A stretch of 8,563 bases of DNA from a virus (Duplodnaviria > Heunggongvirae > Uroviricota > Caudoviricetes), in IMG/VR virus record IMGVR_UViG_2529293043_000020. One strand, written 5' to 3'. Of this stretch, positions 1 to 735 are shown in pieces (position 1 is the stretch's first letter; each line of letters begins with the position of its first letter). The notes beneath the pieces are model-generated. The model did no database searches, had not been told where the DNA came from, and saw nothing but the letters and a program-made list of their open reading frames with translations. The translations under genes were made by a program, and so were the position numbers.

Positions 1-309
1 GTCGAACTCCGCCTTCGCAAAATAAGCGGAAGCCTGGCGAAGGATATCGTTACTGCGGCGCAGTTCACGATTTTCACGTTCCAGCTCTTTCAGACGCTGA
101 CGTTCAGCGCTGGTGAGCCCACCATCACCGCCCCCGGTATCCCGCTCATGCTGGCGAACCCAGACACGCAGAGTCTCCGGCGTACAGCCAATCTTTGGGG
201 CAATGGAACAAATTGCCGCCCACTGTGAGTCATATTCATCCTGACTTTCCAGAACCATACGAATCGCCCGCTGACGGACTTCGGGGGAAAAACGAGTATT
301 TTTAGTCAT
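1..309 (-). CDS. IS3-family transposase OrfA (DNA-binding subunit), 3' end outside the window
   Basis: Reverse-strand translation [103 protein letters not shown] (103 codons, no stop). HTH plus leucine-zipper-like C-terminus typical of IS3 OrfA; matches IS629 OrfA as I remember it. Confidence 0.85.
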
Positions 310-363
310 CCTGTTTACCTCTTTCTCAGGGAGTTTAGTCTCCAGGATTTCCGGGGCGGTTCA
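1..363 (-). mobile_element. IS3-family insertion sequence (IS629/IS1203-like), one end only; element continues beyond the window start
   Basis: On the - strand the terminus at 363 reads TGAACCGCCCCGGAAATCCTGGAGACTAAACTCCC..., which I recall as the IS629-type terminal inverted repeat; the orfA start codon follows 54 bp inside (ATG at 309-307). Abrupt junction with an open phage reading frame at 364. Confidence 0.8.
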
Positions 364-735
364 CACACCCACCAGCAACAGAACCCACCACAGGAAAAGA
401 CGGTGGTCAGCATTGCCGTTGATCCGGAGTCTCCGGAATCCTTCAGGAAACGACCTAAACGTCGCCGCTGGGTAAATGAGAAATACACACGCTGGGTAAA
501 GACACAGCCGTGTGCGTGTTGTGGTAAGCCAGCGGACGATCCTCATCATCTGATTGGTCATGGTCAGGGCGGAATGGGAACAAAATCCCACGATATTTTC
601 ACGCTACCGCTGTGTCGGGAGCATCACAACGAGCTTCATGCGGATCCGCTGGCGTTCGAAGAAAAGCATGGTTCCCAGGTTGATTTAATTTTTCGTTTTC
701 TTGATCACGCCTTTGCGACTGGCGTGCTCGGGTAA
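364..735 (+). pseudogene. 5'-truncated nin-region gene interrupted by the IS; Cys/His-rich C-terminal domain (possibly DUF968-like, unverified)
   Basis: Frame is open from the IS junction at 364 to the stop at 733-735, with no native start inside the window. Motif ...PCACCGKPADDPHHLIGHG...LPLCREHHNELH. The supplied ORF track starts at GTG 403, which is preceded by AGGAAAAG. Confidence 0.6.

Follow-up and report, generated by a model that had tools for sequence, protein, structure and literature searches.

What has become of the phage gene that meets an insertion sequence (IS) in this lambdoid prophage, and what would the IS do to the genes that follow, rusA and a Q-like late antiterminator gene? 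The window analysed here, a stretch of 8563 bp, is the entire draft contig AIFF01000027.1 (GCA_000249275.2); it ends within the IS, so that one IS/target junction is visible. On balance, the reading favoured here is that IS629 inserted into codon 227 of a DUF968 gene, inactivated that gene, probably imposes partial Rho-dependent polarity on the genes downstream and most likely represents a near-neutral polymorphism.

The insertion sequence

The segment between the contig end and the junction carries the following features.

1..363, minus strand: left end (IRL side) of IS629/IS1203, with 363/363 identity to full 1310-bp copies
338..363, minus strand: IRL (terminal inverted repeat), the reverse complement of which begins TGAACCGCCCCGG
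1..309, minus strand: 5' part of orfA, 103 codons, with the ATG at 309-307, truncated where the contig stops

The window contains 363 of the 1310 bp of IS629/IS1203. Read in window orientation, positions 1-363 equal the final 363 bp of the copy at L008 554-1863, which is 1310 bp long, and they match hundreds of copies with 100% identity. The element is named 'IS3-like element IS1203 family transposase' in RefSeq and IS629 in phage records. The reverse complement of 351-363, TGAACCGCCCCGG, matches the IRL of the 1310-bp copy without a difference, and alignment of the IRL with the IRR of IS629 disclosed 13 identical positions out of 13, followed by an imperfect match to about 25 bp. The orfA product belongs to the HTH_Tnp_1 (PF01527) family (Pfam; 47.5 bits against a cut-off of 24.1, E 2e-12), and identical full-length copies of the IS elsewhere include a two-part frameshifted CDS and an AL1L pseudoknot. 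Thus, two of the features by which IS629/IS1203 is recognised as a member of the IS3 family, namely terminal repeats of the form 5'-TG...CA-3' and an HTH-encoding orfA just inside the IRL, are present at this end of the element. Other hallmarks are an orfB DDE transposase made by -1 programmed frameshifting, a full length of about 1310 bp and a 3-bp target duplication on either side.

The genes of the IS run antisense to those of the phage. With orfA on the minus strand and the DUF968, rusA and Q-like genes on the plus strand, the opposite orientation described in the initial annotation was confirmed.

The interrupted gene and the genes downstream

Three phage reading frames follow the junction.

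364..735, plus strand: 3' remnant of a DUF968/YdfU-type gene, codons 227-349 and the stop codon (open frame, Pfam DUF968)
748..1107, plus strand: rusA, Holliday-junction resolvase family, intact (Pfam RusA, 59.9 bits; WP_000904166.1 in relatives)
1116..1646, plus strand: Q-like late antiterminator gene (DUF1133 family), intact (Pfam, PHROG)

At position 363 the IS tip adjoins codon 227 of a DUF968 gene of 349 codons, and the frame is open from 364 through the stop codon at 733-735, the remnant being the last 123 codons. The break falls exactly between positions 6000 and 6001 of an IS-free allele (L001), at codon 226/227, and the remnant shares 99.9% identity with L001 6001-6372. It lacks its own start and the promoter-proximal 227 codons. 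As the complete frame of about 349 codons is absent and codons 227-349 alone are present, the gene is disrupted, and the earlier proposal that the IS terminus at 363 abuts an open phage frame and truncates a nin-region gene is borne out.

The remnant was matched to the Pfam family DUF968 (PF06147) with 198.8 bits over profile positions 60-171 of 171, and the intact 349-aa allele with 258 bits, the domain spanning residues 160-346. The IS therefore cuts the domain at about profile position 60 of 171, and the Cys/His HNH motif stays on the promoter-distal remnant. The protein also matches PHROG 96, 'HNH endonuclease' (E 7e-175). Members of the DUF968 family combine a DNA-binding domain resembling Orf(NinB) with an HNH motif of the zinc-finger type (PMC4118853), on which account 'nin-region gene' is a fair label, and the His-Me finger superfamily takes in the DUF968 family together with YdfU and YbcO (PMC5714182).

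Within the remnant, position 446 carries the sole substitution relative to the closest relative, a T to G change by which a Met codon (an internal ATG in three compared relatives) becomes Arg. The 110-aa DUF968 ORF with this Arg occurs also in two other assemblies, both IS-free.

A Shine-Dalgarno-like sequence, AAGAGGTGA, precedes rusA. The Q-like protein was assigned to Pfam DUF1133 with 367 bits, to Phage_antitermQ with 35.1 bits (cut-off 26) and to PHROG 753, 'anti-termination protein Q-like' (E 3.5e-74). The distances from the IS to rusA and to the Q-like gene, both downstream, are 384 nt and 752 nt, respectively. The placement of the IS upstream of rusA and Q, in the interval between P and Q that is equivalent to 'nin', was hence correct, but the word 'directly' was not, as 384 nt and a gene remnant lie between the IS and rusA.

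Further downstream, the hairpin GCCTTCAGTCCTGAAGGC with a T-run behind it forms a strong terminator-like structure at 2072-2089 on the plus strand, at the end of a 65-aa ORF; it lies ~430 nt downstream of the Q-like gene and is a candidate for tR', on which Q antitermination acts. A tRNA gene at 3335-3410 was called tRNA-Met (CAT) by ARAGORN, and the identical gene in relatives is annotated in RefSeq as tRNA-Ile of the lysidine-modified type. Two small RNA genes were found by comparison with Rfam.

3677-3885, plus strand: sRNA STnc100 (Rfam, 175 bits)
3887-3946, minus strand: anti-GcvB sRNA AgvB (Rfam, 56.6 bits, just above the gathering score)

They lie back to back between a tRNA-Arg gene and nanS-p, and the pair is kept in an IS-free relative. 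An antirepressor gene (P22_AR_N / ORF11CD3) occupies 7513-8080. Relatives have it as a single ORF of 570 bp, whereas here two 1-bp homopolymer deletions (differences at 7772 and 7862) break it into 7513-7869 and 7871-8080; the split may be a real frameshift or an error of the draft assembly.

The prophage and its IS-free relatives

Between positions 364-8563 and a prophage of the O157:H7 strain PNUSAE146743 the differences are one SNP and two 1-bp deletions; identity to the corresponding DNA of 86-24, ATCC 35150, PA20 and others is 99.9%. Among the complete genomes, 383 cover at least 80% of 364-8563, and none of the 383 has an IS at the insertion position. In the O157:H7 relatives the prophage, which is lambdoid and stx-negative, adjoins ompW. 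Its gene order starts with the integrase, a DicA/DicC-type immunity region, O/P-like replication genes and cargo (paa, hokD/sok), and continues with DUF968-rusA-Q-like, a methyltransferase gene, two tRNA genes, nanS-p and the lysis genes. P, DUF968, rusA and Q are co-directional in this order.

Two independent O157:H7 genomes (L009 42266-46366; L013 2882-6985) have a truncated minor tail gene L and a frameshift in the tail tip gene J. As both genes are broken in relatives, the ompW-adjacent prophage lineage was already cryptic and defective for virion assembly, and a defect of induction caused by the IS would add little to this state.

Transcription across the insertion

In the favoured reading a 1310-bp IS629/IS1203 element would have transposed into codon 227 of DUF968, pointing against early-right transcription, and the DUF968 protein would be inactivated. 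Transcripts coming from upstream would have to extend through IS antisense RNA that is C-rich and, over about 1.35-1.7 kb, has practically no translation. Each frame of the IS antisense strand contains 11-19 stops, all three frames are closed, and a single ORF of at least 50 codons is present, which has no obvious Shine-Dalgarno sequence; the composition of the strand is C393 versus G314, and the C/G ratio is at least 2 over IS nt ~626-756. Long untranslated C-rich RNA is the classical substrate for Rho-dependent polarity, and the argument for Rho at this site is one of composition heuristics only. Such polarity would probably lower the expression of rusA and the Q-like gene, partially rather than completely, and lower expression of the Q-like gene would in turn lower that of the late genes (nanS-p, lysis). 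The chain envisaged initially, from polarity on rusA and Q to an induction defect or shifted nanS-p and lysis timing, is to this extent plausible, though its impact would be limited.

The initial annotation had allowed for compensation by N-type antitermination, for which the IS-free prophage offers no support. No N-like protein was recognised in Pfam and PHROG scans of its early-left proteins, and a search with the boxA consensus and a comparison of the prophage with Rfam returned neither a boxA nor an antiterminator (put-like) RNA. As no N-type antitermination is recognisable in this DicA/DicC-type prophage, Rho-dependent polarity on rusA and the Q-like gene is probable, and in its partial form it is, with modest confidence, the most likely functional consequence predicted from the sequence.

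The classical polar mutations caused by IS1 and IS2, including those in the lambda early operon, are Rho-dependent and are relieved by N antitermination. The present insertion resembles such mutations in that an IS interrupts a gene in what may here too be a long phage transcription unit leading to essential regulators, and in that translation stops at the IS boundary, which is predicted here. It differs from them in that no N-type system is recognisable in the prophage and in that the polarity is itself a prediction.

It is also conceivable, though unlikely, that the insertion is silent for the downstream genes and that rusA, Q and the late genes are expressed normally, the DUF968 protein alone being lost. 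Read-through would then be due to an unrecognised processive antitermination, or the IS antisense strand would simply be non-terminating. No strong intrinsic terminator was detected on this strand, which has one weak 5-bp stem, in the IRR. In the IS-free prophage L009 the DNA just after hokD (17790-17807, plus strand) contains the strong terminator-like hairpin AACCCGCTTCGGCGGGTT with a T-run behind it, ~750 bp upstream of DUF968, and a weak promoter-like site comes next (17830-17859); transcripts from farther upstream would already have to pass this hairpin in IS-free alleles, which suggests a read-through mechanism. Moreover, an IS629 within stx2 abolished neither the downstream late transcripts nor plaque formation (PMC7430833), and this case shows that antiterminated RNA polymerase is able to cross IS629. 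However, the stx2 precedent concerns Q-modified polymerase and not early transcription, the elements of an N-type system looked for above were not found, and C-rich RNA that stays untranslated over more than 1.3 kb is what Rho classically acts upon. Partial polarity is therefore preferred to a silent insertion.

Simple insertion or rearrangement

The favoured reading takes the IS to be a simple insertion. Other copies of the same IS are flanked by 3-bp target duplications, CTT in L008 and TTC in L003, and the IS-free allele at the site reads CCGCCT/CAC/ACCCACC (strokes set off the three central bases). From these other copies and the IS-free allele, the following feature is predicted.

364..366, plus strand: predicted 3-bp target-site duplication CAC (codon 227 of DUF968)

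On the far side of a simple insertion, DUF968 codons 1-227 (...CGCTACCGCCTCAC) would be found, and the far junction would read ...CCGCCTCAC joined to the IRR end TGAACCGCCCCGGGTTTCC... The predicted upstream product would have 227 codons ending in ...LPPH, and would be stopped at once by the terminal TGA of the IS. A simple insertion with duplication of CAC is the most likely state, assumed from the one junction that is visible.

Other IS3-family insertions in the DUF968-rusA-Q module were found in complete genomes of 2000-3039 (L003), FRIK804 (L004), F7349, FDAARGOS_1285 (L010) and OkiPb01688 (L011). All five are located within DUF968 or rusA or adjacent to them, on the upstream side of Q, in lambdoid prophages, and all five are simple, with both flanks kept.

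The exact IS/DUF968 junction was absent from 5,426 complete E. coli genomes and 50,697 phage records, and also from viral, metagenome and GTDB genome contigs; pattern scans of the same collections for the predicted reciprocal junction returned no match. A homologue search with the N-terminal 227 aa of DUF968 returned only full-length or contig-cut proteins, and the predicted 227-aa fragment, looked up as an exact sequence in two allelic forms and in one variant with an internal start, gave no match.

These results bear on a rather improbable alternative, in which the IS is the edge of a rearrangement, produced by an IS629 adjacent deletion or by recombination between copies, and the upstream half of the prophage has been lost or moved. 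If this improbable arrangement held, rusA, Q and the late genes would be physically cut off from the early promoter. The contig ends in the IS with the far side unseen, and the predicted 227-aa product is missing from a protein collection that does contain the genes of this assembly. Deletions due to IS629 are documented in O157 genomes (PMC9943667), and a 47.7-kb deletion across adjacent prophages has been described (PMC7430833). The missing product is, however, explicable by a SNP in the unseen half or by a contig break before the IS, which is plausible since DUF968 genes are multi-copy and ~89% identical between prophages, and the five comparable insertions near the module all proved to be simple. 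A simple insertion is accordingly retained as the more likely state.

A chimera of the assembly was also considered and judged unlikely, because the join lies exactly at the IS tip, in frame and at a codon boundary, in a prophage that is otherwise 99.9-100% identical to its relatives.

Search for an outward promoter

The second compensation envisaged initially was an outward promoter borne by the IS. An IS-borne or hybrid promoter of this kind might activate rusA, and possibly Q, in the manner of rus-1 (IS2) and rus-2 (IS10) of the K-12 prophage DLP12, in which IS2 or IS10 upstream of rusA switches on transcription (PMC1636454; PMC10956419). The two situations are alike in layout: a cryptic lambdoid prophage carries an IS within a few hundred bp of rusA, on its upstream side, and the gene that precedes rusA is in both cases a member of the same His-Me finger group, DUF1364/DUF968 (PMC5714182).

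However, standard scans of the plus strand between IS nt 700 and the ATG of rusA found no outward promoter, and a lenient 8/12 scan toward rusA gave 0 sites versus 3.4 +/- 2.1 in shuffles, so that no sigma-70-like promoter leads from the IS toward rusA even at the lenient threshold. In the IS3 family, an outward -35 element is located in the IRR, which here faces away from rusA. The end that faces rusA is the IRL, and its known promoter drives orfA in the opposite direction. With no outward promoter and the IRL as the rusA-facing end, compensation by an IS-borne promoter is unsupported and activation of rusA very improbable. Whereas rus-1 and rus-2 activate rusA (PMC1636454), the expected effect of the present insertion, if any, would be polarity.

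Comparison with other IS629 insertions

Insertions in the DUF968-rusA-Q module are rare (about 5 in 5,426 genomes) and occur at different positions, in different prophages and with different Q types. The sites of the other insertions are near codon 50 of DUF968, inside rusA, ~215 bp further upstream in DUF968, and intergenic. Three of them share the orientation seen here and two have the opposite one. An apparent orientation bias (3/3) was rejected as an artefact of the first search, which joined only IS pieces of the same orientation; as a synthetic query of opposite orientation found the two opposite insertions, there is no orientation preference.

The insertion resembles the IS629 polymorphisms known from O157:H7 in the element, the host lineage, the class of target (lambdoid prophage genes), the split-gene outcome and its strain-specific occurrence. 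Differences in the number and position of IS629 copies have been described as the chief source of variation among O157 phage genomes (PMC4587872), and the sites of IS629/IS1203 in Stx2a phages include roi, lysozyme, methyltransferase and stx2 genes (PMC4587872, PMC7430833). Many gene-inactivation and deletion polymorphisms are likewise put down to IS629 (PMC9943667), and differences in its copy number and position are so common that a typing method is built on them (PMC5790261). What sets the present insertion apart from the known O157 sites is its position, since an insertion at codon 227 of the DUF968 gene of the ompW-adjacent prophage was absent from the 5,426 genomes and 50,697 phage records. 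A well-known element is thus found at a site without earlier record, in an stx-negative prophage that was defective already.

Biological meaning

It was also considered whether IS insertions in the DUF968-rusA segment are recurrently selected in EHEC as a reversible switch that throttles Q-dependent late, nanS-p and lysis expression. This notion, based on six independent insertion events across different prophages, is regarded as highly unlikely. Excision of IS629 promoted by IEE is known. If recurrent selection were nevertheless true, the insertion would be an adaptive 'prophage-taming' lesion and not neutral noise.

No stx gene was found between Q and nanS-p in the window, and therefore no toxin-carrying phage is involved. 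If expression of the Q-like gene is lowered, the outcome would be modest, namely less induction-dependent expression of the nanS-p esterase and of the lysis cassette of one cryptic prophage. The insertion, by which a phage Orf-HNH gene is inactivated, matters little beyond strain typing. As the prophage lineage is without intact tail genes, the insertion most probably belongs to the near-neutral, strain-specific IS629 polymorphisms, a kind of change that is predominant in the diversification of O157 prophages, and its site adds one strain-specific marker to the IS629 site differences that already fingerprint O157 strains.
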